A stretch of DNA of 64,000 nt from an uncultured bacterium (GTDB lineage Bacteria > Hydrothermota > UBA3072 > B12-G15): NCBI GenBank assembly GCA_964596115.1, contig CAZQRW010000002.1:15480-79479 (forward strand), written 5' to 3'. The notes beneath the pieces are model-generated. The model was not told the origin of the DNA. It did not search any database and worked only from the letters and a program-made list of their open reading frames with translations. The position numbers and the translations under genes were made by a program. Positions 1 through 47,653 of this stretch are shown piece by piece (position 1 is the first letter of the stretch; each line of letters begins with the position of its first letter).

Positions 1-180
1 TCCCTGTCAGGTCCTCCTGTATACTGTGGATAGTATCCTGCAGAGTACATTGCTACATCGATGGTCTTCTCAGCGTTTTTTATAGATTTGACAAGATTCG
101 GGATATACTCTCTGTTCCCTATATATTCAATATCCTCAGCACTAAACCCTATTGTGAATATTAGTAAGATGTATGCCATT
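1..180 (-). CDS. N-terminal fragment of a secreted PLD-like (HKD phospholipase D/Nuc-family) protein; the gene continues past the 5' edge of the window
   Basis: A minus-strand ATG at 178-180 starts a hydrophobic signal-like N-terminus (MAYILLIFTIGFSA). This is followed by 'NAEKTIDVAMYSAGYY', which resembles the first PLD/HKD-domain motif ('AKKSIDIA.Y.F'). The ORF runs off the window. Confidence 0.35.
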
Positions 181-1299
181 TTACCATCCCCTTTTGTAGG
201 TTAAACTTAACAATGTTGAAGTTTCGTCAAAGTATAAATCGTTCAATCCAGTTCCAAGGTTTAACTCATCTCCTTTGTAGGAAAGTCCTGAAAAATTAAA
301 CCCAAACCCAAGCTCATTTAAGCCAGCTCTGTATCCGAGGCCAAAGGTATATGTGCCCCTTGTCAAAGAAGAATTCGCATAAATATTACTATACATATAG
401 CCAAGCCTTATAAGAATGTTAGAGGTTAGTAGATGCTCAACACCAAAATGAAATGATTCAACATTATCAAGATTCTCTTTTACACCATCCTTTGTTAAAA
501 CTGACCAGGGAATATATGAAAGCTGGAAATAAATCTTCGCAGGAAGAGGGCCAGGGAAAAAGTAGTCAATTCCAAAGGCATATTGCTCTGGATAATTTAT
601 ATCCGCTACCGTATCCTTTGAGATCTTAATAGCAGTACCATATACAAAACCAATGGTCAAATTCTTAATCGGACTTAAGGTCAAGCCTCCATAGTAACCA
701 TTACCCTTTATACTATAATTTGAATGATTGATAGTAGTATCTGTATCAGTATAATGTTCGTAATTATAAACATCATTTCCCCTTATAATTCTTACTCCTC
801 CTCCGATGCCAATCCATTTATATTTGAATCCAATGTTTGGAGTAAACGAAAATCCATTCAAATCAACTGTCTCATTTTCTGTCAGAATTACCCTATAAAA
901 CTCATCCCTCTCAGTATTTTCATAACTGTACTTTCCCGCCAGAATAGGGAAAAAGTCAAAGCCGATCTGAAGCATATTTTTAGGGATCCTAAAGGAAAAG
1001 GTGTATGGGCCTGCAAGAAAATAGGTGTTATCCGCCACAGTTGTATTACCCACGGTATTATCAAAACTATCAAACACCCTCTTACTCCTTCTCTCTGTAG
1101 GCATCAACAAGGACCCATCAACCAACACCTGAGCATTTTGCAAGAAATATCCTGGGTTGGCAGTAGATACTACCCAAACATCTCCCACACCGTTCATAGA
1201 GGCGTCAAGCACAAAATTAAAATTCCCATAATTCGTAGCCTCCGCAATACCACCAAAAAGAACGAAAGAAACAAAGACTAAAAGTATTGTTTTACGCAT
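181..1299 (-). CDS. Outer-membrane beta-barrel protein with a signal peptide; function unknown
   Basis: N-terminal signal peptide (MRKTILLVFVSFVLFGGIAEA). The rest is rich in alternating aromatic and Gly/Tyr/Asn residues typical of a beta-barrel. It ends with an aromatic residue (…YKRGW). Confidence 0.4.
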   Translation of the reverse strand: MRKTILLVFVSFVLFGGIAEATNYGNFNFVLDASMNGVGDVWVVSTANPGYFLQNAQVLVDGSLLMPTERRSKRVFDSFDNTVGNTTVADNTYFLAGPYTFSFRIPKNMLQIGFDFFPILAGKYSYENTERDEFYRVILTENETVDLNGFSFTPNIGFKYKWIGIGGGVRIIRGNDVYNYEHYTDTDTTINHSNYSIKGNGYYGGLTLSPIKNLTIGFVYGTAIKISKDTVADINYPEQYAFGIDYFFPGPLPAKIYFQLSYIPWSVLTKDGVKENLDNVESFHFGVEHLLTSNILIRLGYMYSNIYANSSLTRGTYTFGLGYRAGLNELGFGFNFSGLSYKGDELNLGTGLNDLYFDETSTLLSLTYKRGW

Positions 1300-1300
1300 A

Positions 1301-3721
1301 TTACCACCACCATATAATTTGAAGGTTTCCAGTATAATTTGTCTTATTATCTACAAATCCATTTATTAAGGTCGGGGTGCCATTTTCGTAATGATATTCT
1401 CCGTTAGAGTATTCAAGCCCAACGTGATTGTATTCAGTATATTTTCTTCTGAACTTAAGTCTTAAAAACAGATTATCAGAAACTCTGTCAATAAATGAAA
1501 CAAAAAATTTATTTCCGTTACCATAGAGAAAGTCAATACCTGTATCTTCAAAAATCCACTGACTCATATCATCCGTCTTCCATATCGCACTCCCCAGATA
1601 AGTAGATAGTCTCTCTGAAAAACGATGTTCAAAGACAAGTGATATATACCCGCCATCCATAACCTCATCCTCTGTGTATTTTAAGGAGGACTGAAGATGA
1701 ACCCATCCGTATCTCGCCCTGAAATCTATATAATCATAGTCAGTTAGCAGGGCATATATCCTGAAAGTAAATTCATTTGTCACAGATTTGGTAGGGGTTG
1801 TGGGTCTCTCCCTCCACTTTGCCTGATATTTGTGTTTAATCCTTATCCTTAAAGGATAGATTGGCCTATATTCAAGTTCGCTTTGCACTCTAACATTAGG
1901 CAAACCTATCGCAAGATTTTTCCAGACATCCACATATGCCCTGGTAATAGTAAAATGTCTATTTATCCTGTACCTCGTCTCCACATAAAGTCCATCCTCA
2001 GGTTTTGGGGCAGGATAGTTCTGCATATCGGAATAAAATGGATCAAGCAATCTATAGGGCTTCTCAAAGGGCGTATCATCAAATCTCTTCTGCTCCATAA
2101 ATGGCCTTGCATAAGGGTTATCGTAACCAACATCATAATGCCTCTTCCTGAAAAGAACATAAATATTATTGTATTGAACAATTCCACCAAAGATATAAGC
2201 ATTAGAAGGTACCCCTGTAAACTGGTGAACAAATTCTCCCTCAATTCCAAAATTATTTATCACAGTCCTCCCGGATATGCCACCAAACTTCTTTTCCCTT
2301 CCATTTGTCATATCAAGATATGTTGGGGTAATCAATTCATCTGCGTCATACTTAAACTCTACATCTTCCCTTGAAATTTTGAATGGCTTATCAGTATGTA
2401 TTTTAAGCCCATTTAACGAAATGTATGTTCCAAAAGGAATGAAAAAAAGGTTGGAAAGGTCCACTCCAAAACTTCCACCGTAGAATTCCTCATTGAATTT
2501 ATCCTTGAACTCTGAGAGGTTATATGGATTTGTAAAATAAAGATTGATTGTTGAATCCCTATTCAAAATACCATCCTTTTTATCCATAGAGTAAAAAGAT
2601 ATAAGTTTAAATCTCTTATAACGAGAAAGTAATCCCGTTCCCCGAGCGGCAAACTCCTGCGACGAAGTTATATCACCGTAGACACCCTCCGCCTTTTCTA
2701 TCGACCTTGCAAGCATATCATCCACGTTTTGAAACATTACTCCCTGCCCTATTGTTACATTGTAGTTACCGACATAAAGTTTATCTATGGGGCCAATATT
2801 GATAAGTCCAATATAACCCTTATAGTTATTTGACCCATCTGGCATTTCTCCTGCCCTTACACCGAGAGAAAGCCTATCCCCATAATCTGTCCTTGCCCTT
2901 ACAAAAATCTTCCGCATATAGTTGTTACTCAATGCCTCTTCCTTTTCATTCTCCAATCTCTCCATAAGTTTTTTCATATTTTCTCTATCCCAACCAGCAG
3001 AATCCATTCTCTGATAGGCATACGTTGTGTCTGAATTGAATGTGTCTAAAACAGGATCATAGTCTATACTGTTGAATAGAGAGTTTACATAATCAACTGT
3101 ACCATCCACATTCTTCCCTCCCATATCCTCCATATCTTCTCGTGAAAACCAGTCAACATTTGCCTTCCCAAAACCTACCCATTTCTTTGGTTTTTGCTCT
3201 TCAGAGGTAACGATAAAATCCCTTATATTTCTGTAGCCATAACTTGTTAAATATGGTGCATATCGAAGATCTGAAGAATACCTTATATTTTTCCATGTCC
3301 TTACATAGTTGATGGCAGATACTGCATCCACAAGGTTCACCCTGCTCAACATAAGTATATCGTCTATATGAACCCTGTTTATATTCATAGGTTTTATTGT
3401 TAATGCCTCCCATTCATCCATTAAGGCCTCGGAGGGTCTTTCTTCTGATGCAAGCCTCTCCTGTATCTGTTCAATATAGTAAGGAATATTCTTTATCTCA
3501 GGTGGTTTCTTGATTATAATAAGATCCTTTAATTTTTTGAACTCCTCTGGTTTCAAGATGTCATATAACTCATAATAAGATGAAATATATTTATGGGTTT
3601 CCCTATACTCATATAACTTCTCTGCTGATGCATCTGAAATGGGAAGCAGCTTTATCTCATTAATGGATGCCCTATTTATGTCAAGGGGCATTGTAACCGA
3701 GATTAGTAGTATCCATATCAT
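1301..3721 (-). CDS. Large secreted or outer-membrane protein whose N-terminus carries a ComEA-like helix-hairpin-helix DNA-binding motif
   Basis: The N-terminus reads 'PLDINRASINEIKLLPISDASAEKLYEYRE'. This matches the ComEA HhH consensus (INtAS.eEL..LPGIG...A..I..YRE). The remaining ~750 aa are beta-rich, with many aromatic and Gly residues. The gene sits in an operon with two OM barrels. Confidence 0.5.
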   Translation of the reverse strand: MIWILLISVTMPLDINRASINEIKLLPISDASAEKLYEYRETHKYISSYYELYDILKPEEFKKLKDLIIIKKPPEIKNIPYYIEQIQERLASEERPSEALMDEWEALTIKPMNINRVHIDDILMLSRVNLVDAVSAINYVRTWKNIRYSSDLRYAPYLTSYGYRNIRDFIVTSEEQKPKKWVGFGKANVDWFSREDMEDMGGKNVDGTVDYVNSLFNSIDYDPVLDTFNSDTTYAYQRMDSAGWDRENMKKLMERLENEKEEALSNNYMRKIFVRARTDYGDRLSLGVRAGEMPDGSNNYKGYIGLINIGPIDKLYVGNYNVTIGQGVMFQNVDDMLARSIEKAEGVYGDITSSQEFAARGTGLLSRYKRFKLISFYSMDKKDGILNRDSTINLYFTNPYNLSEFKDKFNEEFYGGSFGVDLSNLFFIPFGTYISLNGLKIHTDKPFKISREDVEFKYDADELITPTYLDMTNGREKKFGGISGRTVINNFGIEGEFVHQFTGVPSNAYIFGGIVQYNNIYVLFRKRHYDVGYDNPYARPFMEQKRFDDTPFEKPYRLLDPFYSDMQNYPAPKPEDGLYVETRYRINRHFTITRAYVDVWKNLAIGLPNVRVQSELEYRPIYPLRIRIKHKYQAKWRERPTTPTKSVTNEFTFRIYALLTDYDYIDFRARYGWVHLQSSLKYTEDEVMDGGYISLVFEHRFSERLSTYLGSAIWKTDDMSQWIFEDTGIDFLYGNGNKFFVSFIDRVSDNLFLRLKFRRKYTEYNHVGLEYSNGEYHYENGTPTLINGFVDNKTNYTGNLQIIWWW

Positions 3722-4473
3722 CTGTAACCTGCTCCAACTGTATATGTTGGTTCAATGCTGCTATTGTATTCGTATGAAAAATTAACATTTACAGGAGCAG
3801 CATTAATCCCAATGCCAAAGGAAACCTCAAAAGGCGATGAATGGAAACCAGTTCTTAATGCAATTTTATCACCTATTATAAATTCCTGACCAAAGAGGAA
3901 TCTTGTGGGTTTATCAAACTCTTTTTCAAAACCAAAGGCTGTTGTTGCGCTCTTGTATGGTTTGTAAGAAACACTCATACCCGCCTTTGTCGGAAGGCTG
4001 TACTTCACATCCTTGCCTACCGTTGGTCTATTCACGTTATAAACTGCCCCTCCGATATACCACAATTCCCAAACCCTTGAAATTACCCCTATATCAACGC
4101 CATAGGTAAACTCATCACCAAATCTTGACTGAAATAGGTAAAAACCCTTTACAGTATAACCGAGTTTTGTATCTTCTCCAAGGGGAACGCCCTGTGATAT
4201 AGAAACTACGGTTTCATTCTGAAGATCCTTTACATTTCTGTATCCAAGATTAAAACCAAAGGATTTCATTCCCAAAAAAATTCTCCCCGTACTAACTGTG
4301 CTATAGAGACTCCTATATGAAGTGCTAAGAGTAAAATCCTTCATAAATCCGCAGGAGGCAGGATTAAATGAAATGACCGGGTCAGGGATGCTGTAATCTG
4401 CACCTCCCATTGCATTACCAATGGGAGAAAAAAGAAGGTTTTCAAAAACCGATACTATTAATAACATTGCCAT
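3718..4473 (-). CDS. Small porin-like outer-membrane beta-barrel protein
   Basis: N-terminal hydrophobic segment. Alternating-pattern beta strands with Gly/Tyr/Phe-rich turns. C-terminal '…VGAGYR'. Its start overlaps the stop of the upstream gene by 4 nt, suggesting translational coupling. Confidence 0.4.
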   Translation of the reverse strand: MAMLLIVSVFENLLFSPIGNAMGGADYSIPDPVISFNPASCGFMKDFTLSTSYRSLYSTVSTGRIFLGMKSFGFNLGYRNVKDLQNETVVSISQGVPLGEDTKLGYTVKGFYLFQSRFGDEFTYGVDIGVISRVWELWYIGGAVYNVNRPTVGKDVKYSLPTKAGMSVSYKPYKSATTAFGFEKEFDKPTRFLFGQEFIIGDKIALRTGFHSSPFEVSFGIGINAAPVNVNFSYEYNSSIEPTYTVGAGYR

Positions 4474-4474
4474 A

Positions 4475-6439
4475 TTATCTTCCTAATTTTGTGCCCACTA
4501 TAATGGGCTTAGTTAATTTTTCAGTTTTTCCATCTGTTTCTTTTACAACAATATGAATGAGATAAAGTCCGATAGTTACTTTTTTATCATACTCATCCTC
4601 TCCATTCCAGTATGTCTCGTATGGCCCACCTGGATAATTCACAACAAGAATCTTCACCAATCTGCCCTCAGCATCAAAAATCTTTGCAGTAATGCTTGAG
4701 TTATGTGGAGCGGTTATTTTTACATCCGCAACCTCACCCAGGTCATAAGAGAATGGATTTGGTGTAATTGTACAGGTGAGTACCTCTGTTGTTTCCGAAG
4801 GTATCTCCATAACTATATCGTTCATATCTCTGGGAAGAAGTTGATAACCAGTTGTATATGGTTCATGGGAGTCATATTGACCACCAACACCCGTAATAGT
4901 AAATATGTCTCCCTTACCCATCATATTTCTCATTGAGTCAACATTTATACCTGTGCCTGTTTCTAACCTTATGGTTATATATGCCTGACCATTTGCAACG
5001 GTAAAATTGTAACCCCCTCCAGCTGCTATTGGTGTTAATGGTGTCACGACCTTTGATTTTTTTACACAGAGGAGCCTTCCCTCGGTGGATTCATCAAGAC
5101 CAACCGATGTGGCGAGCGTCTCCGGTTTAAATATGGGATCCCATCTCGAAATTAGTGTGACATCGGATGGATTATTCACCTTCACCTCTGTTAATCCATT
5201 ATATTCATCTACAGTACCCTTTATCAAATACCTATAATTCCTTTTTACAGGGATAGCATCATAGGAAAATATATCAACTCCGCTGGTGGTATCATTCAAA
5301 TAGAAACCGGTCCCCGTTGGAGAGATATTTCCCGTTACTGCATAGCCGAGCACAGTAACAACATCACCAAGCATACCAGAGGTAACGCCATCAGGGCCTG
5401 GATTCTGAACGTCTCTTAGATCTGTTATTGTGGGCATTGCTATAATTTTTATGAATGGTTTTCCAGCAACAGAAAAAATGTTATTATCCATACTTCCCTC
5501 AACCCTGAATGTAAATGTGCCTGTCGTATCAATAATGACATTATTAACCTGGATCATCACTGTATCAAATATACTGGTGCCAAAGACCTTAATTGTGTCT
5601 CCTGTTGAATCGGATACAACTACTGCTGAATCATTTGAGGGAAGATCAATTGAACCAACATTATGAGACCAGATAATTTCGGGAGGGATAAAAACTCTGA
5701 GATAACTCACCGTATCTATAGTACTTATGACCCGAAATTTTAGATTAAAATTAACCCTCTCAAAAAATTGAACAGGGTCACAATCTGCATAGAGCCCCTC
5801 TATCTCTCCAGGCTCAAGGATATCTCTGTCATCTCTGGGAAGGATCTTGTAATCGTAGTAATAGTCTACCGGACCTGTAACACTATATGTATCACCTACA
5901 ACAGGTTCAAAGTAAAAAATCCTATCGTCAACTATTGCAGGTCCACTTCCATCATCAACCTCCCACTCCCCATAGGCATTAACACCCTGCGTGCAAGCTG
6001 CTTTTACAACCTTTACAAGCACACCTTCATACTTCTCATCGGATATATTACCGGTGGAATCAATAACAGGGTCAGGGGGCGTTGTAGAACCAAGTACTGT
6101 AATTTCATCTGGATAAGAGACCTCTGTAACACCATAGTATTCGCTCACCTTCCCAGTAATTCTTACACTATCCCCCCTCTCAACACCTGGATTTGAGGAA
6201 CCATTGTATATATAAATCCCTCTCCAGGCACCACCTGGTTTCATCTCAACAAAGAAGGCATATCTTGTACTTCCACCAGACAGGTATGTAAAAGGTGCGG
6301 TAACAACACCGTAGAAAGTGACGGTGCTGTCAACAAATGGTGAAGAACTGGCGTGTCCCTGAATCTCTTCAATAGTATGAACCCCTCCAATCATAGAGAG
6401 GGGCAAAAAGGCCAATAAAAAAATTGATATTTTCTTCAT
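4475..6439 (-). CDS. Secreted multi-domain protein with two extracellular-nuclease-type OB-fold repeats and a C-terminal FlgD-Ig-like/T9SS-type sorting domain
   Basis: Signal peptide at the N-terminus. Residues ~20-150 read 'HTIEEIQGHASSSPFVDSTVTFYGVVTAPF…GDSVRITGKVSEYYGVTEV'. This is the I.EIQG…SP..G..VT..GVVT pattern of the N-terminal OB-fold in COG2374 extracellular nucleases. A second copy follows ('GDVVTVLGYAVTG…IKGTVDEYNGLTEV'). The C-terminus reads 'KIFDAEGRLVKILVV…GLYLIHIV', a FlgD-Ig/Por-secretion-tail-like domain. The gene is paralogous to 6453-7397. Confidence 0.55.
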   Translation of the reverse strand: MKKISIFLLAFLPLSMIGGVHTIEEIQGHASSSPFVDSTVTFYGVVTAPFTYLSGGSTRYAFFVEMKPGGAWRGIYIYNGSSNPGVERGDSVRITGKVSEYYGVTEVSYPDEITVLGSTTPPDPVIDSTGNISDEKYEGVLVKVVKAACTQGVNAYGEWEVDDGSGPAIVDDRIFYFEPVVGDTYSVTGPVDYYYDYKILPRDDRDILEPGEIEGLYADCDPVQFFERVNFNLKFRVISTIDTVSYLRVFIPPEIIWSHNVGSIDLPSNDSAVVVSDSTGDTIKVFGTSIFDTVMIQVNNVIIDTTGTFTFRVEGSMDNNIFSVAGKPFIKIIAMPTITDLRDVQNPGPDGVTSGMLGDVVTVLGYAVTGNISPTGTGFYLNDTTSGVDIFSYDAIPVKRNYRYLIKGTVDEYNGLTEVKVNNPSDVTLISRWDPIFKPETLATSVGLDESTEGRLLCVKKSKVVTPLTPIAAGGGYNFTVANGQAYITIRLETGTGINVDSMRNMMGKGDIFTITGVGGQYDSHEPYTTGYQLLPRDMNDIVMEIPSETTEVLTCTITPNPFSYDLGEVADVKITAPHNSSITAKIFDAEGRLVKILVVNYPGGPYETYWNGEDEYDKKVTIGLYLIHIVVKETDGKTEKLTKPIIVGTKLGR

Positions 6440-6452
6440 TTATCACCCTTTC

Positions 6453-7397
6453 TTAAAGATGTATAAATCTTGATACATTTGTCGTATCGTTTGTTTTCAA
6501 TATAATGAAGTATATTCCTGCGTTTGTTCTTTTCAGATCAATGTTATATTTATGTGCACCTCTTTCAAACCTCCCTTTCATTACCCTCTTTACCAACCTG
6601 CCATTGATGTCATAGATACCTATCTCTCCCTCGGTATCCTTATCCAGAATAAATGAGACCTCTATATTAGAGGGAGCGAAATTGGAAGAAACCTTAAATG
6701 TAATGACGTTCCCACTATTTATCTCCCTTATGCCACTAACATTAACAATATCCGAAGAATCCCTGGGCTCAACCTTGAAACTATCAAAGGCAAAATTTAA
6801 TGGTCCTATAACGGTGTAAGAATCTCCAAGTATTGGGGTATAGGACACATTCCAGTCGTCGACTCTCAAAGGGCCTGAACCATCATTTATTTCCCACTCG
6901 CCATGGCCCAGATCAGTATTGGTGCATTGTGCATTTTCTACTTTTAAAAGGACTGATTCGTATTGTTCATCGTTCGCATCACCAGTAGAAACTATTAAAG
7001 GTAAAGGTACCCCTACACCACTTGCGAGAATACTGTATGTATTACCGTAAGCAAACTCAGTCATATTGTTATATTCCTGAATAGTGCCGGTTATTTCAAC
7101 ACTATCACCTCTGGAAACATCCTGTGTCCAGGAGTAACCTTGATATGCATATATTCCTTTCCAGGCACCAGCAGGTTTTTCCTCAATAAAGAATCCCCTT
7201 GAGAATACACCTGTAACCACGCCAGAAGTAGTAACAGTACTGCCCACATATGGAGAGTCACCTGATGGATCTGTCGTATATTGGATTTCGTAGATAGAAT
7301 GGTATGAGCCCAAAAGAGGAATAACCATCGTCAACCCCAAGAAGATCCATAACCTTTTCATAAAACACCTCCTTTTTACTTTTTTTAACTTTAACAC
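6453..7397 (-). CDS. Secreted protein with one extracellular-nuclease-type OB-fold domain and a Por_Secre_tail (T9SS type A) C-terminal domain; paralog of 4475-6439
   Basis: Signal peptide at the N-terminus. 'HSIYEIQYTTDPSGDSPYVGSTVTTSGVVTGVF…GDSVEITGTIQEYNNMTEF' aligns with the N-domain of the neighbouring gene. This includes a shared 'GEWE(V/I)DDGSGP…VDD' block. C-terminal 'IGIYDINGRLVKRVMKG…AGIYFIILK' matches the T9SS C-terminal sorting-domain consensus. Confidence 0.55.
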   Translation of the reverse strand: MLKLKKVKRRCFMKRLWIFLGLTMVIPLLGSYHSIYEIQYTTDPSGDSPYVGSTVTTSGVVTGVFSRGFFIEEKPAGAWKGIYAYQGYSWTQDVSRGDSVEITGTIQEYNNMTEFAYGNTYSILASGVGVPLPLIVSTGDANDEQYESVLLKVENAQCTNTDLGHGEWEINDGSGPLRVDDWNVSYTPILGDSYTVIGPLNFAFDSFKVEPRDSSDIVNVSGIREINSGNVITFKVSSNFAPSNIEVSFILDKDTEGEIGIYDINGRLVKRVMKGRFERGAHKYNIDLKRTNAGIYFIILKTNDTTNVSRFIHL

Positions 7398-7431
7398 TTT
7401 TTAAAATATCGTCAAGCATAAATTTTTATAA

Positions 7432-8352
7432 TTAATGGGTCGAAATAGGTGTTTTTTTCGGGAAAAATAATCTGCTGAAAACGCCTCCCTGGGTTATCTT
7501 TTTTAAGACATCAATATGTTTGTAAGCCGCTGTTCTACCCATTTCAACGCACTCATCAAGCCTTCCAAAATCTGTCCAGTGCACATCTTTTGTATCTATC
7601 TCAATAACATAATCTGCCTCTTCTAATAGCAACCTGAAAAGTTTTAGCTTTGCAAGTTCATCACCCCTCAGAATGACACTCATAGAACTATTGAGTTTTC
7701 CAGGTGGGGAGGGCTTATACCCAAATATAACACCTATAACGATGTCTGCACCAAGATCTCTGGCTGCCTCAACCGGGACATTTGCAGTAACACCACCATC
7801 CACAAGAATCCTTCCTCCAAGTTTTACAGCAGGAAAAATCCCGGGGATGGCAGCGCTTGCCCTCACCGCGCACTTAATTAATCCCTCTTTAAAAATAATG
7901 TCCTGGCCTGAGACAAGATCAAGGGCAACTGAAGCAAATGGAAGTTTCATATCTTTAAACGTTTTGTTATTAAACATCTCATCAAATATTTCTTCTACTG
8001 GCTCTTCTGGAATCAGGGAGCTCTTTCCCAATGCCTCAACAAAGGTTAAACCCACTTTTAATCTATGCCTGATCCTCTCAAACCAATTATCTTCCTCTTC
8101 TGATTTAAATTTACTCAATCTCATCTCTCTGTACGCCTCTGAATCTACAAATCTCCTTGCCATATTCTTCATTTTTACCGCATCAGGTTTAAGGGCATAA
8201 AATCCACCAACGATGGCACCAATACTGGTGCCAGCAATTATGTCTATTGGAATTCCCTCCTTTTCAAATACTTCAAGAACACCAATATGTGCAAGCCCCT
8301 TTGCCCCTCCACCTGCAAGTGCGATTCCCACCTTTGGCTTTTTAAATAGCAT
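7432..8352 (-). CDS. Patatin-like phospholipase
   Basis: Glycine-rich oxyanion motif 'GGGAKG'. Nucleophile elbow 'GTSIGA' (GxSxG). Catalytic 'DGG' present (LVDGGVTANVP). Confidence 0.8.
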   Translation of the reverse strand: MLFKKPKVGIALAGGGAKGLAHIGVLEVFEKEGIPIDIIAGTSIGAIVGGFYALKPDAVKMKNMARRFVDSEAYREMRLSKFKSEEEDNWFERIRHRLKVGLTFVEALGKSSLIPEEPVEEIFDEMFNNKTFKDMKLPFASVALDLVSGQDIIFKEGLIKCAVRASAAIPGIFPAVKLGGRILVDGGVTANVPVEAARDLGADIVIGVIFGYKPSPPGKLNSSMSVILRGDELAKLKLFRLLLEEADYVIEIDTKDVHWTDFGRLDECVEMGRTAAYKHIDVLKKITQGGVFSRLFFPKKTPISTH

Positions 8353-15251: not shown

Positions 15252-15856
15252 TATAACTCCTCTATCTCTATTTCATTGTTTGTGAATATACATATCTCTG
15301 AGGCAATTTTTAAACTTTTCTCCACAATTTCTCTGGCGGAAAGCTTGGATACCTGAAGGAAGGCCCTTGCCGCTGCAAGTGCATATGGACCACCAGAGCC
15401 AAGAGCAATGATATCATCATCAGGTTGAACAACGTCCCCGTTCCCAGAAACAAGAAAACTTAAATCCCTATTCATTATACCCAATATTGCCTCAAGTCTT
15501 CTTAAATATTTATCCATTCTCCACTCTTTCGCAAGTTCTACAACTGCCTTTGTGAGATTTCCGGGAAATGTGTTCAATTTTTGTTCAAATCTTTCTAATA
15601 GTGCAAGCCCATCTGCAGCGCTACCAGCAAATCCGACAAGTATCTCTCCATTATGAAGTTTCCTTATCTTTTTTGCACCTTTCTTCATAATTGTATTTTG
15701 AAAGGTTACCTGACCATCACCACCCATTGCAACTTTTCCATCCTTTCTTACACCAATTATTGTAGTGCTCTTAAATATACTCCTCAAATCCTTTTTCAAT
15801 TCCACACCTCCTGAATATTTCATTGGCGAGTTCCCTATACTCCTCCTCTTCTTCAT
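15251..15856 (-). CDS. hslV: ATP-dependent protease subunit HslV; the true start is probably internal (TTG at 15797-15799, preceded by AGGAGG)
   Basis: 'STTIIGVRKDGKVAMGGDGQVT' contains the catalytic N-terminal Thr context. The longest ORF begins at 15856 and overlaps the upstream gene by 85 nt. An AGGAGG Shine-Dalgarno lies 7 nt ahead of a TTG at 15797-15799, which would give a short propeptide ahead of the TT. Confidence 0.9.
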   Translation of the reverse strand: MKKRRSIGNSPMKYSGGVELKKDLRSIFKSTTIIGVRKDGKVAMGGDGQVTFQNTIMKKGAKKIRKLHNGEILVGFAGSAADGLALLERFEQKLNTFPGNLTKAVVELAKEWRMDKYLRRLEAILGIMNRDLSFLVSGNGDVVQPDDDIIALGSGGPYALAAARAFLQVSKLSAREIVEKSLKIASEICIFTNNEIEIEEL

Positions 15857-18602
15857 AAAAGGTAGAAAGAAAAGAAAGAATATTATAATCTTTTGCTATT
15901 TCCCATAGTGTGCCATAAATCTTATGGGCGTTTATTGCCTTCTCCCCATATTTCTTTGCCAAAAGGGAATCCCCCAATCTATCTTTTACTATTGCTAACA
16001 ACCTATATACCTCGCCCCTTTTCTCATTTGTTACTTCATTCTCCAGTCTTTTAAGTAATCTATCTGCATCCTTATACATTTTACCCCTTATAAGCAATTC
16101 TGCTTCACCAATTCCCAACTCGTATTTCACATCCTTATATCCATATTTCTCAACAATCTTTCTTGCTCTATTGAAATACACAGAAGCCTTTTTATTGTTG
16201 CCCTTTTTTGTCTCCATTCTACCAAGAAGTACATATGTACTTGACAAATTCGGCAAGATATGGGCCTTCCGCAAATTTTCCAGTGCTTTATCCAGATAAC
16301 TCTTAATATTTTTTGTATCACCTATTTCAAATAACAAATCTGCTATAAAGTAATTGATTGAGCCAATAAGAGAACTATTTCCAATCTTCTCGGCAACACC
16401 GAGTGCATATTCATAATGTTTTAACGCCTCTTTCAATATTGATTCCTTTTCATAAATTAAGCCAATATTCATATATAATGATGGTATGGAATCAGTATCT
16501 GCAAGTTCTATAAATCCTTTTAAGGCCTTACCGTAATATTTTCTTGCTTCATCAAGGTCACCCCTTGAATAATATATCGCTCCCATTCTATTTTGAAAGA
16601 TTGATGTCCAATAATTATCATTTAACTTATATGCTATTGATATCCCATTCCTGTAATAATTCAACGCACTTTGAAATTTTTTCTCACTATACTCCAGAGC
16701 ACCGAGGGCTGCAAAGGCTCTCATTTGATCTTCCATCTTTTTTGACAACCTTAATGATTCCTGTGCGTACTCTCGTGCCCTTTTAAAATCTCCAACAGCA
16801 AGAAGGACCTCGGCTATGATAGGAAGTGCATCTTCTCGTATTGATTCCAGCGTATTAAATGCATCCTCCATATTACCCATCTTTGCATATAATATACCTA
16901 TCTTTTTTACTATCTCCACATCCTTTTTGTTTTCCAATGCTTTATTGAACATTTCCAACGCATTACGGAATTCACCTTTTTTATAAAAAATATCCCCCCA
17001 TCTTTCATAAAATGTTTTTCTGTTAAACCATTCTTCATTAATCCATTTCTTAAGCCTCCCAAGAACTTCCTCTGCATCTATAAGAAGACCCTTATCCAAT
17101 AAAGTTCTTACAAGTAAAAGAGACTGTTCTGTTTCATTTACAAAATCTCCTGCCATTCCAAATTGATACGCAGAAGGCCCAGGATAACCCTTCCTGGAAA
17201 GAATCATCCCTGCTTTTCTATGTAACTCTTTTCTTTTACTTCCTATTCCCTGGTATAACTTCTTTCTCAGTTCTTCCGTTGATATTATAAAATTTTCAGA
17301 TGGTTTGAGAAGACCAACGCTTAAGCCAAAGTTTTTCATTTTATATACCTCGTCACGAGAAATTCCCAATATATCTGCAATTAATTCACAATCACCAATG
17401 TCACCAAGAAGTGCCCCAACTTGAAAGATCATCCCCTCTTCCTTTTTGAGTTTCTTATACGTTTTAAACAGATTCCCTTCAATGTCTGTATCAATAATCT
17501 TACCCATCTGAATTTTATTTTTCCCCAGCTTTATAACGTTGTTATTAAGGAAATTATTCAATGTAGACAAAAGTTTGCCAGGTATTCCCCGGGTCTTATC
17601 AAAAAGATATGCAACAAGATTGTCATCTATATCTTGCATCCCAATAAAAGAAGAAATAAAATCCTTTGTTCCATATAGATCAAGTGGTTCAAGATTTATT
17701 TTCAAGAACTGATTCATACCAACATCCTCTTTTCCCGAAAGTATTAGAAAGAATTTTTCTTTACCCATTATAGATGGCAATTTTTCAAGAAATTTTCTTG
17801 TCTCCATTGAACAGGACTCAATATCGTCAATACACCAAAAAACTGGCCTTCCAGATATCGATGGTGAAATACTGTTAAGCACTTTCCATGTTGGATTAAA
17901 TGATTTGTCACCAGTAAGAAATTGAAGGGGCTCATAACCAAAATCTTTCTTGCAATTAAATGATGTCGCATCAAAACCTGCAAGATTTGCATATATCAAA
18001 AGTTCCGAAAGTATCCTTGTCTTGCCAACCCCCTCAACTCCTGTTAGGTATATAAATTTCGGATTTCCTCGGGAAGCCTCCTCTAAGCCAGATTTTAGGA
18101 TGGAAAGAACGTTTTCCCTCCCAACAAATCTTATCCCATAATGATCCTTCCTCTTTGCTTTAAGCAATATATCATCGGCACATTTCAGAAGCTTGGAAAG
18201 ATCATCTCCATCCTCTGGGTATGTTGCAGAACCAATTGTAAAGGATATCCTTACAGGTGGGTCTCCAGCGAATTCTCTGTGAAAAACAATATCGTTAATA
18301 TATCCCTCAAAAGAATCCATTAAAGATTTATCTGTAACAATTATAATAAATTCATCCCCTCCATACCTCACCACTGTACCCCTATTCTGCACCGATTTTT
18401 CAAGAATGTCAGCAACATCCCTTAATACTTCATCTCCACGCATATGTCCATAACTATCATTAATCATTTTAAAAAAGTCAATGTCAAGCAAAAACAGTCT
18501 AAAAGACTTTCGGTCTTCAATTAAATCGTTAACATAAGGCTTAAGAAAACTCCTTGTATATAGCCCGGTCAAATCATCGAGCTTTCTACTTTTGGATTTC
18601 AT
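15771..18602 (-). CDS. Multidomain signalling protein: N-terminal GGDEF diguanylate cyclase, central STAND/AAA_16-type P-loop NTPase, and a C-terminal TPR array
   Basis: The GGDEF domain has an intact 'RYGGDEF' and 'DIDFFKMINDSYGH'. Walker A 'LTGVEGVGKT' and Walker B 'VFWCIDDIE' follow. There are then ~450 aa of TPR-like repeats (…YYSRGDLDEARKYYGKAL…). The gene overlaps guaB at its 5' end and hslV at its 3' end. Confidence 0.8.
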   Translation of the reverse strand: MKSKSRKLDDLTGLYTRSFLKPYVNDLIEDRKSFRLFLLDIDFFKMINDSYGHMRGDEVLRDVADILEKSVQNRGTVVRYGGDEFIIIVTDKSLMDSFEGYINDIVFHREFAGDPPVRISFTIGSATYPEDGDDLSKLLKCADDILLKAKRKDHYGIRFVGRENVLSILKSGLEEASRGNPKFIYLTGVEGVGKTRILSELLIYANLAGFDATSFNCKKDFGYEPLQFLTGDKSFNPTWKVLNSISPSISGRPVFWCIDDIESCSMETRKFLEKLPSIMGKEKFFLILSGKEDVGMNQFLKINLEPLDLYGTKDFISSFIGMQDIDDNLVAYLFDKTRGIPGKLLSTLNNFLNNNVIKLGKNKIQMGKIIDTDIEGNLFKTYKKLKKEEGMIFQVGALLGDIGDCELIADILGISRDEVYKMKNFGLSVGLLKPSENFIISTEELRKKLYQGIGSKRKELHRKAGMILSRKGYPGPSAYQFGMAGDFVNETEQSLLLVRTLLDKGLLIDAEEVLGRLKKWINEEWFNRKTFYERWGDIFYKKGEFRNALEMFNKALENKKDVEIVKKIGILYAKMGNMEDAFNTLESIREDALPIIAEVLLAVGDFKRAREYAQESLRLSKKMEDQMRAFAALGALEYSEKKFQSALNYYRNGISIAYKLNDNYWTSIFQNRMGAIYYSRGDLDEARKYYGKALKGFIELADTDSIPSLYMNIGLIYEKESILKEALKHYEYALGVAEKIGNSSLIGSINYFIADLLFEIGDTKNIKSYLDKALENLRKAHILPNLSSTYVLLGRMETKKGNNKKASVYFNRARKIVEKYGYKDVKYELGIGEAELLIRGKMYKDADRLLKRLENEVTNEKRGEVYRLLAIVKDRLGDSLLAKKYGEKAINAHKIYGTLWEIAKDYNILSFLSTFYEEEEEYRELANEIFRRCGIEKGFEEYI

Positions 18603-22096: not shown

Positions 22097-24757
22097 ATGA
22101 CTGAGCCCCGGTTTTTTCTCTTTCCAATTTCAGATAATGATATATATTATTTTTATATGATTCCAAAAAAACTGGAGAGGTATAAGATCATAGAATGGCT
22201 GGGGGGCGGAAGATTTGGGGATGTATACCTTGTACAGGACAAACTCCTTGAAAAAAAATTTGCACTGAAGATAGGAAGGGGTAAGGGAGACGTGGATGGT
22301 TATCTTAAAGAGGCAAAAATCATCTCCGGGCTTGAACATCCCAATATTATAAGGTTCTATACCGCTGATATGATCGAAGGAAGAATATTTATCGTAACAG
22401 AATTTATTGAAGGGAAAAGCCTTCGGGAAATCATTGAGAAAGAAGCACCCCTGGACATAAAAACGGCACTTTCTATTGGAAAAGACATACTAAAAGGGCT
22501 TTCCTATGCCCATAAAAGGGGTATTATTCACAGGGATTTGAAACCTGAAAATATTATGTTAACAAAGGATAATACAGTTAAGATTGTTGATTTTGGTATT
22601 TCAAGGATTGGTGAAGATATAACAGCATCCATTGCAGGGACACCCCCTTATATGCCTAAAGAGGCATGGAAGGGGAAATATGACGTGAGGTCTGATGAGT
22701 GGTCTGCAGCACTCATTATCTATGAGATGCTCACTGGTGTAAATCCATTTTTTTCAGAAAATCTTGAAGATGTTAGAAAAAAGATATTTAAGGGCAAAAT
22801 AAGACCATTAAAAACCGTTGCATCAAGAATAAGTATCGAAATCGAAGAGGCATTGAAGAAGGCATTATCTCCTGATATGGATGATCGTTTCCCTTCAGTA
22901 AATGATTTTCTAAGAACGTTAAGGGAAGAGACTCATTCTAACATTTCAACTATGAAGATGAAAAAAAGACCTTCAATAAAGGGCCTTCCATATCCTCTTA
23001 CAGAGGAAGAAAGGGAGGCACTAATCCATGAAGAAAATGTCCTCTTGCTGGGAGGACCAGGAACTGGTAAAACTTATACGTTAACTGCAAAGGTTATTGA
23101 CCTTATAAACAGGGGGATTTCTCCTGAGTCTGTCGTACTAACAACATTCACTCTTAGAAACTGGCATGAGCTTGAAAAACGTTTAGAAAAGGAACTGGGA
23201 ACTCTCACAAGAGATATAATACTCGGCAATTTTCACAATCTCTGTATGAGAATATTGAGGAGGGACATAGGAATCTTAGGCTTTCCTGAAGACTTTACTG
23301 TTATTCCATCATCAACCCAGGCAATAATTATGAAGTCGATATCAAAAAATTATGGGGTTAACCACAGGTACGCTATGAGAAAGATCCAGGAATATAAAGC
23401 AAGAGGACTAAAGGCAAAAGAATTTATAGAAAGAAAAATGGAAAATACGATAGTAGAAATATGGGATCAATATCAAAGTAGACTGAAGAAAGAGAACCAT
23501 CTGGATTATGATGATGTACTCATCTTTACAAGGGATATTCTAAAAAGAAATCCGGGGTTAAAAAATTTTTATACTAATAAATTTAAATACCTCGTCATTG
23601 ATGAATATCAGGACTTGAATCCTGTTCAGGTTGAGATTGTAAGATTGTTATTTTCAGGGGAAAATCAAGTATTTGCTACCGGTGATGACGACCAGATGAT
23701 ATATGGATGGAGAGGTGCTAATCTCCGAACGATAAAATTCTTTGAGAAATATTTTCCTCCCGCTATCATATTAAAATTGACAAGATCCTTTAGATTGCCA
23801 GTGAGCATATCAAACGCCGCAGCAAATCTCATAAAATACAACAGAAACAGAGAAGAAAAAATAATATTCCCTAAAAAAGTAGCGGGTGAAGGTGTCATAG
23901 TAAAACAGTTTGCAAGGAAAAATTCAGAGGCATCTTTTTTAGTAAAGGAAATTACAAAACTTGTAAAGGAGGGCTATAACTTCTCAGAGATCGCTGTAAT
24001 GTTCAGGGTCAATAGATACAGCAGATTGATAGTAGAGTCCCTTTTGAACGCAGGCATACCTCATTCAAGTCTGGGTGGTGGTTTCTATGAAAGGAAAGAA
24101 ATCGCTGGACTAATCACGCTTATGGAATTTATTATCACAAAAAAACAATCTAAACTACTCTCCGCGATAAATTTTCCTGAGACTCTTGTAAAGAAAAGAA
24201 AAAAGACAAAATCAAAAGACATAAAAAACTACATTGAGGGGAAAAAAGATGAAGCAGCCAAAGAGCAATACAAAAAATTGCTATCACTCTCAGAAATGAT
24301 AAAGGGTATGGGAACTGCCACTGCTGTAAGGTCCGTTGTGAAATCATTGGGTCTTATTGAATATTACTCTTCTAAGGAAAATGGCATCGAAAGAATCGAA
24401 AACATAGATGAATTTATTCAGTCTGCCGAGGATTTTGAGGAAAAATTTCCAGGGAAAAATCTCAATGCATTCATCACATATGTAAAAGATATAAAGAGGG
24501 CAGGGCTTTCCGGGCAGGAAGGTGTAAACCTTCTTACCGTTCATTCTGCAAAAGGGCTTGAATTTCCTGTCGTATTTATTCTGGGATTGGAGGAAGGCAT
24601 TTTCCCTTTATTGAGAGCAATGATAACAAGGGAGGAAATGGAAGAGGAGAGAAGGCTTATGTATGTGGCTATGACAAGAGCAATTAGAAAATTATACCTT
24701 ACTTACTCAACCCCAGCAAAACCCTCACGATTCCTATCTGAAATATTCGGCCAATAG
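22097..24757 (+). CDS. Fusion protein: N-terminal Hanks-type Ser/Thr protein kinase joined to a C-terminal UvrD/PcrA-type superfamily-1 DNA helicase
   Basis: The kinase domain has a Gly loop 'LGGGRFGDVY', catalytic lysine in 'FALKIG', catalytic loop 'HRDLKPENIML', 'DFGIS' and 'GTPPYMPKE'. The helicase domain has motif I 'GGPGTGKT', motif II 'DEYQDLNPVQ', motif III 'TGDDDQMIYGWRGA' and motif VI 'VHSAKGLEFPVVFI…YVAMTRA'. It is a single uninterrupted 886-aa ORF. The true start is probably at the ATG near 22157 (MIPKKLERYKII). Confidence 0.8.
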   Translation: MTEPRFFLFPISDNDIYYFYMIPKKLERYKIIEWLGGGRFGDVYLVQDKLLEKKFALKIGRGKGDVDGYLKEAKIISGLEHPNIIRFYTADMIEGRIFIVTEFIEGKSLREIIEKEAPLDIKTALSIGKDILKGLSYAHKRGIIHRDLKPENIMLTKDNTVKIVDFGISRIGEDITASIAGTPPYMPKEAWKGKYDVRSDEWSAALIIYEMLTGVNPFFSENLEDVRKKIFKGKIRPLKTVASRISIEIEEALKKALSPDMDDRFPSVNDFLRTLREETHSNISTMKMKKRPSIKGLPYPLTEEEREALIHEENVLLLGGPGTGKTYTLTAKVIDLINRGISPESVVLTTFTLRNWHELEKRLEKELGTLTRDIILGNFHNLCMRILRRDIGILGFPEDFTVIPSSTQAIIMKSISKNYGVNHRYAMRKIQEYKARGLKAKEFIERKMENTIVEIWDQYQSRLKKENHLDYDDVLIFTRDILKRNPGLKNFYTNKFKYLVIDEYQDLNPVQVEIVRLLFSGENQVFATGDDDQMIYGWRGANLRTIKFFEKYFPPAIILKLTRSFRLPVSISNAAANLIKYNRNREEKIIFPKKVAGEGVIVKQFARKNSEASFLVKEITKLVKEGYNFSEIAVMFRVNRYSRLIVESLLNAGIPHSSLGGGFYERKEIAGLITLMEFIITKKQSKLLSAINFPETLVKKRKKTKSKDIKNYIEGKKDEAAKEQYKKLLSLSEMIKGMGTATAVRSVVKSLGLIEYYSSKENGIERIENIDEFIQSAEDFEEKFPGKNLNAFITYVKDIKRAGLSGQEGVNLLTVHSAKGLEFPVVFILGLEEGIFPLLRAMITREEMEEERRLMYVAMTRAIRKLYLTYSTPAKPSRFLSEIFGQ

Positions 24758-45703: not shown

Positions 45704-47653
45704 TTATGGGAAGAGCGATTTGATAGTCGTTCTTTCTAACTTTATTTCCGGTATGCTCTTTAGACGTAGTGAAAATTTATAATCCCAGTTTGAACCGTAA
45801 TAGCTATAAGAAAAAGACATTGACCAACAGTGTAAATCCCTCTTTAACGCAACACTCATATTTGTCATTTTACCCCTTTCAAAGTCATAGTGACTATTTA
45901 ACTCTACAAACCACTTCCTTGTTATATTCATTTTGAGTTTAGCATCTGCCTGTTGTGTCAAAGAAGTGTCCGTGAATGTTAGATGATGCCTTATATCAAA
46001 ATGGAATGGTTTACTTTCAAACTTCTTTTCAAGCGTAAAATCTGTATTAAGAAATATATCAGAAAATTTTCTTGTATATATGTCATAAGTTGTTGAAATA
46101 TTTGATGTAATTACATTAAAGGGTATCTTTCCATTTATCATGATTGGAGCAATCTTTTTTTCATCGAATTGATATGAAGATGCAGCACCCAAGGTTAATA
46201 ACTCAAATTTGTTTTCACCCATTTTTCCTTGCAAATCACTGGTTAATGAGAATATTAGGGATCTTCTTTGATGAGGTATAGAAAAAGGGGCTCCCGGAAA
46301 GAAATCCACCGAATCGGCTGAAGAGGTGTAAGAATATGAGAAACGAGGGGTAATAACATTCCTGAATTTATTAAATGGATAAACCCCAAAAAGGGAGAAT
46401 AAATAAATCTTCGTATGGGTTTGTAAAGAATAAGAATAATTCCAAATCATTCTGGGGATAGAATCCTTAGTCAAAGAGGTATAAAAATTGTTTACATTAA
46501 ATTTGCCTGTTACAACAAATGGAAACATATTTTTTGTTATGCTTGCATTACTTCTACTATTATTATAAAGAATATCCTCTTCGTTTCTTAAAGAGCTGGT
46601 AGAAAAATCAATGGAAACTGGCCCAATATGTCCTGGAAAGATAGTGACATTAAACTTTGGTAATTTCTCCTTTATCTCTCCTGTAAAAAGGTTCTTCTCC
46701 CATTCAAATATTACGTCACCACTGGCAAACGAAAAGCTCCTGGAAAGTGAAAGATAAGATTCTACATTTTGTGTTCCAGGGTTAACTACACCGGGGATAT
46801 AATCCCTATTAATATCTCTATCGCTCTGAAGATTGGAGAAAAATTTCATGTTTATGCCCCCGGGAATCTGAGAGTTATTATTCCCCTTCAATTCCCATCT
46901 CTCCCTACCACCCCTCTCTCTTTGATAGAATCCGCTAATGTTCCCCCTCGATTTATTTCCCTCAAGTGTCCATCTTAATTCAAAAAATGGCCTTAAACCC
47001 ATACTTGTATAAAAGTTGAAACCAAGCGTGGCATCCGCGTTTGATCCAAGTGTCTGATACCATGCAATATTTTCGATATATTTTCCTGCATAACCCGATG
47101 AACCAAATTTTGGCATTAAAAATCCTGATCTTCTTCCCCTTGAAAGAGGGTACATCCAAATAGGTATGTAAAATAATGGAATACCTGAAACAACAAGAAA
47201 TATATTGGATGCCATAAGCTTATCATTCAGTATAACTTTCATTCTGGGAGAAAAAAAATAGTAGTGGGGAGGGCTGAGATCACAGGTAGTAAATGTACCC
47301 TTGTTTATTTTAAGAATCTTATTCTTATAGAATCTCACCTCTTTCCCTGTCATCCAGCCCTTTTCTACTTTTGTCCTTCCATTATTCACAACTCCCTTTT
47401 TTTCATCAAAAAAATAGACCATTTTATCACCAGTTATTTTTTGGTCCTTTTCATAAAAAATAGGATTACCATTTGCTATAAGTTTCTTCTTATCGATGAA
47501 ATAGGATATTGTTTCTGCCTCCACCCTTAAATCCCCATATATAACCTCACCTTTTCCAAATAATTTTACGGAGTTACTTTCCGGAAAAAATAAAATTCTA
47601 TTGCCAGAATACTGGATTGAATCTGCTTGAAAAAGTATAAGGAAAAGGATCAT
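45704..47653 (-). CDS. lptD: LPS-assembly outer-membrane protein LptD-like
   Basis: N-terminal OstA-like domain ('…[35 protein letters not shown]…'). '[20 protein letters not shown]…[11 protein letters not shown]' matches the conserved LptD block (yTTC…P.FY.PY). A large C-terminal barrel follows. It is co-located with lpxD, skp and bamA. Confidence 0.7.

Follow-up and report, generated by a model that had tools for sequence, protein, structure and literature searches.

In sediments and digesters, much phosphorus, nitrogen and carbon is stored as extracellular DNA. Two routes by which bacteria take it across the outer membrane had been described earlier: a type IV pilus combined with a secretin; and, since 2021-2025, a DUF5689 protein combined with a TonB-type barrel in Bacteroidota. 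A further case is a locus of an uncultured bacterium of the Hydrothermota (GTDB lineage Bacteria; Hydrothermota; UBA3072; B12-G15), found at the start of a stretch of 64,000 nucleotides (assembly GCA_964596115.1, contig CAZQRW010000002.1, positions 15,480 to 79,479), here called the window. Its six genes encode two proteins with oligonucleotide/oligosaccharide-binding (OB) modules, OB1 and OB2, three outer-membrane barrels and a phospholipase D (PLD)-family nuclease. The largest barrel carries N-terminal helix-hairpin-helix (HhH) domains and is termed the HhH-barrel. Taken together, the domain, structural and gene-order data make it probable that this locus is an operon for the capture, import and catabolism of extracellular DNA, that is, a DNA-utilisation locus, in a diderm WOR-3-type bacterium. 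The locus points to a third solution of the crossing problem: cargo proteins of the type IX secretion system (T9SS) would serve as receptors, and the channel would carry its own periplasmic DNA-binding ratchet. The HhH-barrel belongs to an uncharacterised protein family, possibly a novel kind of outer-membrane channel for DNA.

Organization of the operon

The six open reading frames (ORFs) are packed on the minus strand and fill window positions 1-7397. These are: OB1 (6453..7361, 302 aa); OB2 (4475..6439, 654 aa); a small outer-membrane barrel (3718..4473, 251 aa); the HhH-barrel (1301..3721, 806 aa); a mid-size outer-membrane barrel (181..1299, 372 aa); and the PLD-family nuclease, of which the first 59 codons (1..179) lie in the window and the remainder of the 182-aa protein past its edge. 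A preliminary description of this DNA, made from the sequence alone, had reported six co-directional genes; all are present on this strand, as are the peptide strings it quoted. From OB1 to the PLD gene the successive spacings are only +13, +1, -4, +1 and +1 nt. Because of these minimal gaps and overlaps the arrangement is operon-like, and it indicates translational coupling. For OB1, an alternative GTG start at 7397 would give 314 aa; gene callers choose ATG 7361, which yields the 302-aa product with a clean signal peptide and is likely the true start.

OB-fold proteins

OB1 consists of a signal peptide, one OB module of ~190 aa and a T9SS type-A C-terminal sorting domain. OB2, also secreted with a signal peptide, is longer and contains: OB module A (residues ~20-210; nt 5810-6382, minus strand, as for all domains below); an Ig-like beta-sandwich (residues ~216-333; nt 5441-5794); OB module B (residues ~340-545; nt 4805-5422); and a PorU/PorZ-like C-terminal domain (CTD; residues ~555-650; nt 4490-4777). 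The N-termini of both are of the signal peptidase I type, without a lipobox cysteine. OB1 and OB2 share 45% identity across 214 residues (E=3e-52) and in OB2 the module occurs a second time in diverged form (E=9e-7), which bears out the earlier view of two paralogs with a repeated OB fold in the longer one.

Single-sequence searches were weak, with Pfam matches below threshold for the OB module (20 bits against a cut-off of 27), the HhH domain and FlgD_ig; family alignments were therefore used as profiles. In the OB family alignment (n=16), a tRNA_anti-codon OB domain is found in 14/16 members, FlgD_ig in 12/16 and DUF5689 (PF18942) in 9/16. The PF18942 matches, the best at E=1.3e-10, belong to the aligned homologues; the window OB proteins themselves have no PF18942 match at E<=0.1.

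The structure model gives the same picture. The closest matches of the OB module are: RPA (match value 13.3); the AspRS anticodon domain (12.5 and 12.0); MCM N-domains (~12); the HIN domains of p205 and p204 (11.7 and 11.6); and the AIM2 chain of entry 4jbm (11.0), with POT1, STN1 and TEN1 lower. For the other parts of the protein, the spacer matches a YcnI-type Ig sandwich (14.2) and the CTD matches PorZ (10.5). Carbohydrate-binding modules, the alternative fold that the preliminary description had proposed to check for, are not among the top structural matches of the OB model. At the level of the model, the OB modules are confirmed as nucleic-acid-type OB folds resembling those of RPA, AspRS, MCM and HIN domains.

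A relationship to secreted nucleases is also apparent. The N-modules of OB1 and OB2 match the NCBIfam family ExeM_NucH_DNase (NF033681) over positions 1-111 of 546 only (E=3.8e-9 and 6.9e-13, respectively), and neither PF03372 (EEP) nor any other nuclease catalytic domain was found in OB1 or OB2 by Pfam and NCBIfam searches. This agrees with the earlier proposal of an N-terminal OB fold of COG2374-type nucleases that has no catalytic domain attached. An assignment of the proteins as ExeM/NucH nucleases can be ruled out: the catalytic domain is absent and the scores, 35.9 and 48.3 bits, are far under the cut-off of 300 bits. Relatives do fuse the OB module to enzymes, either the EEP nuclease domain PF03372 (P0032 and P0034) or PLDc_2 (PF13091) together with Por_Secre_tail (P0056, P0057, P0059 and P0070). 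Nuclease-associated OB matches had been set in advance as the test of this part of the reading, and they were obtained from the ExeM/NucH N-region, the tRNA_anti-codon and DUF5689 families and these EEP and PLD fusions. Judged from their domain content, the window OB proteins are putative binding-only derivatives of the ExeM/NucH type. Separately, an OB module with 37-42% identity over ~30% of OB2 occurs in large archaeal proteins of Thermococcus that contain GIFT/DUF4350-type domains (P0035, P0036, P0066 and P0067).

C-terminal sorting domains had been proposed for both proteins. This stands fully for OB1, which passes both curated cut-offs (Por_Secre_tail, PF18962, 34.7 bits against 27; TIGR04183, 34.5 bits against 23). 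The CTD of OB2 is FlgD_ig/PorU/PorZ-like at a score below threshold and is similar to the CTDs that PorU and PorZ retain; in a phmmer search of the PDB with the single OB2 sequence, the PorU CTD was the sole match.

The HhH-barrel

After a short signal-like N-terminus, the 806-aa protein contains tandem ComEA/EEPD1-type (HhH)2 domains (residues ~13-170; nt 3212-3685, minus strand) followed by a beta-barrel of ~24-26 strands (residues ~181-806; nt 1304-3181), which ends in the aromatic sequence WWW. The AlphaFold model (pLDDT 78, pTM 0.76) shows two helical HhH domains and then ~25 long beta-strands, with a variable helical insert at residues 194-267. The most conserved segment of the family is a loop rich in Arg, aromatic residues and Pro (residues ~527-585; nt 1967-2143), for which the family alignment gives the consensus RHYDVGYDNPY.R.F.EQ.RFDDTP.EK.YR...P...P.PK.E.G.Y.ETRY, including several invariant Arg, Pro and aromatic residues.

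The ComEA-type N-terminus that the preliminary description had recognized is upheld at the level of the family. In the window protein HHH_3 (PF12836) is detected at E=4.6e-5 and 23.9 bits, just under the Pfam cut-off of 27, and homologues score 58-73 bits. A profile of 14 HhH-barrel sequences matches the tandem HhH of EEPD1 (9yi2_A) at E=3.3e-15 over profile positions 10-174, and ComEA structures at E ~2e-8. With the 806-aa single sequence, phmmer found no match in the PDB.

Two features place the HhH domains with respect to the membrane. In homologues, a canonical signal peptide ends directly before the first HhH, and a variant of 1251 aa (P0126) has ~430 residues of tetratricopeptide repeats (TPR) N-terminal to the HhH. 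Because of the position of these signal peptides and the TPR-HhH-barrel layout, we infer that the HhH domains would lie in the periplasm. The layout of the variant recalls the exporters BcsC, PelB and PgaA, which combine periplasmic TPR with a barrel. Domain searches found no Plug, TonB_dep_Rec or CarboxypepD_reg signature in the HhH-barrel or its relatives. A TonB-dependent transporter is rejected on sequence, for lack of Plug and TonB_dep_Rec, the structural likeness to such transporters being generic to large barrels.

The smaller barrels

The two smaller barrels had been described as porin-like. Both are indeed outer-membrane barrels; the generic porin label does not hold, and the docking barrels of the PorV/FadL type are the better comparison. 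The 251-aa protein, a remote member of the PorV/PorQ/FadL superfamily, matches PorV_fam (NF033709) at E=2.1e-9 and 37.4 bits, without reaching the cut-off of 90, and its family profile (26 members) matches the PorV structure 6h3i_F at E=2.5e-7, with weaker matches to TodX/CymD (0.01-0.06) and also TbuX. The 372-aa protein, of the FadL/TodX/BamG/PorV superfamily, matches PorV_fam at E=4e-4 and 20 bits, again under the 90-bit cut-off; its family profile (25 members) matches 9hjm_F at E=5.4e-9, TbuX/TodX at 1e-3 to 4e-3 and PorV at 0.04. Entry 9HJM is the BAM complex of P. gingivalis, whose 14-stranded FadL homologue is BamG (PMC12578637), and chain F is taken to be this subunit. Because the family profiles match PorV, BamG and TodX/TbuX structures, both barrels are assigned, by sequence similarity, as predicted FadL/PorV-superfamily members.

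Barrels of the PorV, PorQ and BamG type are known as docking partners of surface proteins, not as polymer channels: PorV acts with CTD cargo and BamG with BamH (PMC12578637). By analogy, the OB proteins are inferred to dock on the 251-aa barrel through their CTDs. Downstream of the nucleotidase gene, four other loci (L036, L045, L049 and L075) have a further OB-CTD gene, shorter than the first (~434-477 aa), with a small PorV-like barrel of its own (~263-269 aa) directly after it. Because the pair recurs in this way after the main cluster, it suggests that OB protein and small barrel form a self-contained unit.

The operon beyond the window

The genes past the window edge were read from a metagenome contig (L001) that has 5 mismatches to the window in 8352 nt. 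There the operon continues with: the PLD protein; a UshA-like protein; two UgpA/E-like permeases; a lipoprotein substrate-binding protein (SBP); and a pyrimidine-nucleoside phosphorylase (PyNP).

The PLD/Nuc-like protein that had been seen to run off the window is complete in this contig. Its 182 aa carry an N-terminal signal peptide and a single, intact HKD motif (HSKIVIID...GSTN), scoring 93.8 bits for PLDc_2 and 26.7 bits for PLDc. Matches in the PDB are Nuc (1byr, E=2e-7), Zucchini (2e-6) and NucT (2e-4). The protein is NucT/DrmC-like and misses the NucT equivalog cut-offs; it is a putative Nuc/NucT-type nuclease. In five loci (L033, L037, L041, L076 and L086), two tandem PLD paralogs of ~190-198 aa each precede the degenerate UshA-like gene, and in all of these but L076 the nucleotide-metabolism genes NrdR and SAICAR synthetase are found further downstream.

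Next after the PLD gene is the UshA-like protein of 290 aa (L001:11673-12545, on the minus strand of the window genome). At the positions of the UshA metal-binding motifs, it has NNAFG, GN, GTNE, D and GSSE where D-x-H, GD, GNH[DE], H and GH-x-H are expected, and it has no 5_nucleotid_C domain. An active nucleotidase is ruled out for this product, every metal-binding motif having been lost. Across loci, short degenerate forms (274-308 aa) always follow a PLD gene, and long forms (500-545 aa), whose motifs are intact, are found in loci that lack PLD. Possibly, the short form acts as a pseudo-enzyme alongside the HKD nuclease.

The SBP (L001:14288-15529) finds its best PDB matches in the 7c0f/7c0x series (E=1.5e-40), which scores ahead of UgpB (E=3e-26). 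This series is presumed here to be the Thermus thermophilus dinucleotide (U3G)-binding protein, reportedly described by Chandravanshi et al. in 2021. If so, the substrate of the importer may be di- or oligonucleotides rather than sugars. PMC12718374 groups the dinucleotide-binding SBP of T. thermophilus with UgpB, in the phosphate-ester-binding branch of CUT1. On its sequence relationships, the importer is classed as a predicted ATP-binding cassette (ABC) system of the UgpB, or phosphodiester-binding, branch. The operon also encodes PyNP (L001:15540-16796), which scores 514 bits for TIGR02644 against a cut-off of 409.

Conservation of the gene set

Relatives of the HhH-barrel numbered 13 by word-indexed search and 161 clusters at E<=1e-30 by full profile scan; the family comprises ~160 clusters at 50% identity. 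A scan of one genome per species gave 156 relatives. Synteny was counted in the best 80 of these 156 with iterated hidden Markov models on ORFs, using only loci with a long enough flank; the counts are lower bounds. WOR-3 accounts for the majority of the 80 loci, and the others come from Edwardsbacteria, TA06, Fermentibacteria/Hyd24-12, Aegiribacteria, Stahlbacteria, Hydrothermota, Latescibacterota and Cloacimonadota.

The conserved core runs from the OB protein through small barrel, HhH-barrel and mid barrel to a nuclease or 5'-nucleotidase. A small barrel lies directly upstream of the HhH-barrel in 51/62 loci and an OB protein within 4.5 kb upstream in 38/53; a mid barrel lies directly downstream in 36/68, and a PLD or metallophosphoesterase within 3.5 kb downstream in 27/53. 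Synteny in relatives had been named as a check on the locus, and the gene set proves strongly syntenic in dozens of species-level genomes. The same order is present in six independent metagenome contigs. It is also seen in an assembly with an OB protein that is labelled Caldithrix abyssi at NCBI (OB protein of 922 aa, OB protein of 1017 aa, barrel of 295 aa, HhH-barrel of 858 aa, barrel of 420 aa, 5'-nucleotidase), whose HhH-barrel shares 25% identity with that of the window (E=2e-56).

The back end of the cluster takes two alternative forms: PLD plus the short degenerate UshA-like gene; or a long 5'-nucleotidase with intact motifs. Genes for an SBP, located upstream, for a MalK-type ATPase and for DHH/DHHA1 phosphoesterases also recur in the neighbourhood. 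No ComEC-, DprA- or ComF-type gene was found in ~90 flanks, in which unknown ORFs were sampled and the ten commonest clusters annotated.

Proposed function and alternatives

The pathway suggested by these data would proceed as follows. The OB proteins would be exported and shown on the cell surface, their CTDs docked on the co-encoded PorV/PorQ-like barrels, as in the PorU-PorV and PorZ-PorQ pairs, where they are predicted to bind DNA without sequence specificity. The DNA would then be threaded through the ~24-26-strand HhH-barrel, whose periplasmic HhH domains would act as a tethered ComEA-like ratchet, making passage independent of both TonB and a pilus. In the periplasm, the PLD nuclease would cut the DNA to nucleotides or short oligonucleotides, a step at which other lineages would have the 5'-nucleotidase, and the ABC system would take up the products. 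The cytoplasmic end would be served by PyNP here, and by NrnA-like DHH proteins elsewhere, yielding bases, deoxyribose-phosphate and phosphate.

The preliminary description had read the locus as one for extracellular-DNA capture or utilisation, and the wider context supports that reading. Of the purposes it offered, nutrient scavenging is most likely the best, because the genes beyond the window add a PLD nuclease, an ABC importer and PyNP. A bolder proposal is that the HhH-barrel represents a new class of outer-membrane nucleic-acid translocon: a channel with a covalent ComEA-like ratchet and no pilus, secretin or TonB, fed by T9SS-displayed OB receptors on PorV/FadL-type barrels and widespread in uncultured phyla of the Fibrobacterota-Chlorobiota-Bacteroidota (FCB) group (WOR-3, Fermentibacteria, Edwardsbacteria, TA06, Latescibacterota, Cloacimonadota and Calditrichota). 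This proposal is tentative, and somewhat more doubtful than credible at present.

Several observations weigh against the DNA-utilisation reading as a whole or in part. The evidence is computational throughout: that the OB and HhH domains bind DNA, and that DNA passes through the barrel, are predictions. In the HhH-barrel of the window, the first HhH hairpin is LPIS in place of the canonical GIG and the HHH_3 score falls just short of its cut-off, and the lumen may be plugged by the helical insert 194-267 or the conserved loop 527-585. The operon of the window has no active nucleotidase; since the UshA-like gene has lost its metal ligands, a gap is left within the locus between the products of the nuclease and the substrates of PyNP. 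The ligand suggested for the SBP is likewise a prediction from its relatives. Roughly one quarter to one half of HhH-barrel loci have no detectable nuclease or nucleotidase neighbour, which is due in part to contig ends and profile sensitivity. Lastly, the T9SS core (SprA/Sov, PorV, PorU and GldKLMN) is not among the 10 largest other ORFs of the window, the genome not having been searched for it.

Three other explanations were considered. One is a surface DNA-binding or adhesion module without translocation. Here, the OB-CTD proteins would bind matrix DNA for biofilm anchoring or feed nucleases, the barrels would be T9SS-style anchors or porins for small products, and the ligand of the HhH, DNA or some other polyanion, would be bound at one face of the membrane. 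The docking role known for PorV, PorQ and BamG-type barrels (PMC12578637) fits this explanation, as do the OB and small-barrel pairs that stand alone beside some loci. A barrel of ~620 residues and 24-26 strands, by contrast, far exceeds what anchoring needs, and periplasmic N-terminal HhH domains have no obvious role if the DNA stays outside. The tight and widespread linkage to importers and to nucleases and nucleotidases that carry a signal peptide only, with no CTD, also argues for uptake, and a module confined to the surface is considered unlikely. A natural-transformation machine, delivering intact DNA to the periplasm for import by ComEC and recombination with catabolism secondary, would explain why the HhH domains are of the ComEA type and why, among experimentally characterised systems, the one nearest to the core serves competence, with a surface protein of the DUF5689 family, an outer-membrane barrel and an HhH protein as its parts (PMC8459023); elsewhere, a single uptake machine can serve both purposes (PMC12478041, discussion). 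Yet the genes conserved beside the core encode nucleases, 5'-nucleotidases, DHH phosphoesterases, ABC importers and PyNP, with no competence gene in the flanks sampled, and a periplasmic HKD nuclease encoded directly downstream would destroy the incoming DNA. Transformation as the main purpose is, if anything, the less likely of these two.

Chance juxtaposition of ordinary T9SS cargo, outer-membrane proteins, a phospholipase-D lipid enzyme and an unrelated sugar ABC system would account for the single-sequence scores that lie under curated thresholds (HHH_3 23.9 against 27, PorV_fam 37 against 90, OB 20 against 27), for the annotation of the best PDB match of the PLD protein as 'phospholipase' and for that of the PDB relatives of the SBP as sugar-binding. 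But family-level profiles raise every weak match to significance and the structure model backs nucleic-acid OB folds. Moreover, the gene order is kept in at least 8 phylum-level lineages in which different nucleic-acid enzymes (PLD, 5'-nucleotidase, DHH and PyNP) were independently recruited. Coincidence is accordingly very hard to credit.

If a DNA-utilisation locus is the correct reading, a function can be given to outer-membrane genes that are labelled "hypothetical" and recur as a block in at least 8 candidate phyla, and the polymer-utilisation-locus idea for DNA is extended beyond Bacteroidota. The locus offers a defined, testable family and a conserved gene set. Were the HhH-barrel indeed a translocon, it could be a main route of extracellular DNA turnover in sediments and anaerobic digesters.

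Other features of the window

A gene for a patatin-like phospholipase (7432-8352, minus strand) ends 34 nt before GTG 7397 and 70 nt before ATG 7361 of OB1. Among the loci compared it was detected by profile only in L001, the window's own sequence, and for that reason it is placed outside the conserved module. The gap between this gene and OB1 contains a promoter-like site (TTGACG-16-TAAAGT with a TG extension; 7388..7415, minus strand). It is a weak, possible candidate for the operon promoter; counts in the promoter and terminator scan of the region, including promoter-like hits, are at chance level.

Elsewhere in the window, an LptD_2-type protein (45704-47653, minus strand) and BamA with 4 POTRA domains and Omp85 (51474-53690, minus strand) are encoded, and the host is therefore a diderm with a classical outer membrane. 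An ORF of 886 aa (22097-24757, plus strand) has the unusual architecture of an N-terminal Ser/Thr kinase (Pkinase, E=1.9e-48) fused to a complete UvrD/REP helicase. A 943-aa protein (15771-18602, minus strand), composed of a GGDEF diguanylate cyclase, an AAA_16 ATPase and a long TPR array, is a signalling protein like the signal transduction ATPases with numerous domains (STAND), with cyclic di-GMP output.

Comparison with known systems

In the literature search, which left most subscription journals outside, no paper was found that describes an HhH-fused barrel with the OB-CTD arrangement, and nothing was found on T9SS with extracellular DNA and nucleotidase, WOR-3 with extracellular DNA, or WOR-3 with T9SS. 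The preliminary description had gone further, stating that no described system corresponds to the locus. That statement has to be withdrawn: the ddb loci of Bacteroidales (PMC12478041) and a set of Riemerella genes (PMC8459023) are functional and partly homologous analogues.

Bacteroides thetaiotaomicron needs ddbABCDEF to deplete exogenous DNA, and the locus is described as resembling a polysaccharide-utilisation locus (Sharan et al., PNAS 2025; PMC12478041). The window locus applies the same logic to DNA, a single operon combining a surface OB/HIN-like binder (there DdbD, a DUF5689 protein), an outer-membrane barrel and nucleases that are secreted or periplasmic. The OB family is related to DUF5689 in sequence, through the members that match PF18942, and shares with DdbD the structural matches to HIN domains and PDB 4jbm that were reported for the latter (PMC12478041). 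The differences lie in the machinery. The annotation of DdbC is TonB-dependent transporter; the window barrel, by contrast, has no Plug, TonB_dep_Rec or CarboxypepD_reg and carries an N-terminal HhH. The binders there are signal peptidase II lipoproteins, and here they have a signal peptide and a T9SS CTD; the neighbour of the OB protein here is a PorV-like barrel and not a SusC-like or TonB-dependent one. Two extra PorV/FadL-type barrels, an HKD/PLD nuclease and an importer with PyNP are included here, and the hosts are outside Bacteroidota.

In Riemerella anatipestifer, a DUF5689 protein (RA0C_RS04920), an adjacent outer-membrane barrel (RS04915) and a separate multi-HhH protein (RS02645) are all essential for pilus-independent transformation (PMC8459023). 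The same three functional elements, a DUF5689-related surface protein, an outer-membrane beta-barrel and a multi-HhH protein, recur here. In contrast to the window locus, where HhH and barrel are fused, the Riemerella HhH protein is separate, predicted periplasmic and encoded elsewhere; and its output is transformation via ComEC, whereas the neighbours here are catabolic.

Individual components have further counterparts. The N-terminal ~160 residues of the HhH-barrel are homologous to the HhH_3 domain of ComEA (PMC3879209), the tandem HhH of EEPD1 being the better match, and the role proposed is also that of ComEA: binding of incoming periplasmic DNA to bias its movement inward. ComEA itself, which is small and either soluble or anchored in the membrane, acts together with the PilQ secretin and a pilus that retracts; in the window protein the domains are fused to the putative outer-membrane channel. 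With ExeM/NucH (COG2374) the window proteins have the N-terminal OB region in common (NF033681 positions 1-111), and they have neither the LTD nor the EEP catalytic domain of those nucleases. As in the pairs PorV-PorU, PorQ-PorZ and BamG-BamH (PMC12578637), FadL-superfamily barrels, 14-stranded in those cases, are associated with surface proteins. Those of the window are far smaller, at 251 aa, or show no more than remote similarity, and unlike the T9SS attachment pairs their genes share a substrate-specific operon with the genes of their cargo and do not accompany the secretion machinery. Taken in aggregate, the DNA-utilisation logic and the DUF5689-type binder were already known; new here are the HhH-fused, plug-less, non-TonB barrel, its PorV/FadL-like partners, the anchoring by CTD and a different set of enzymes.

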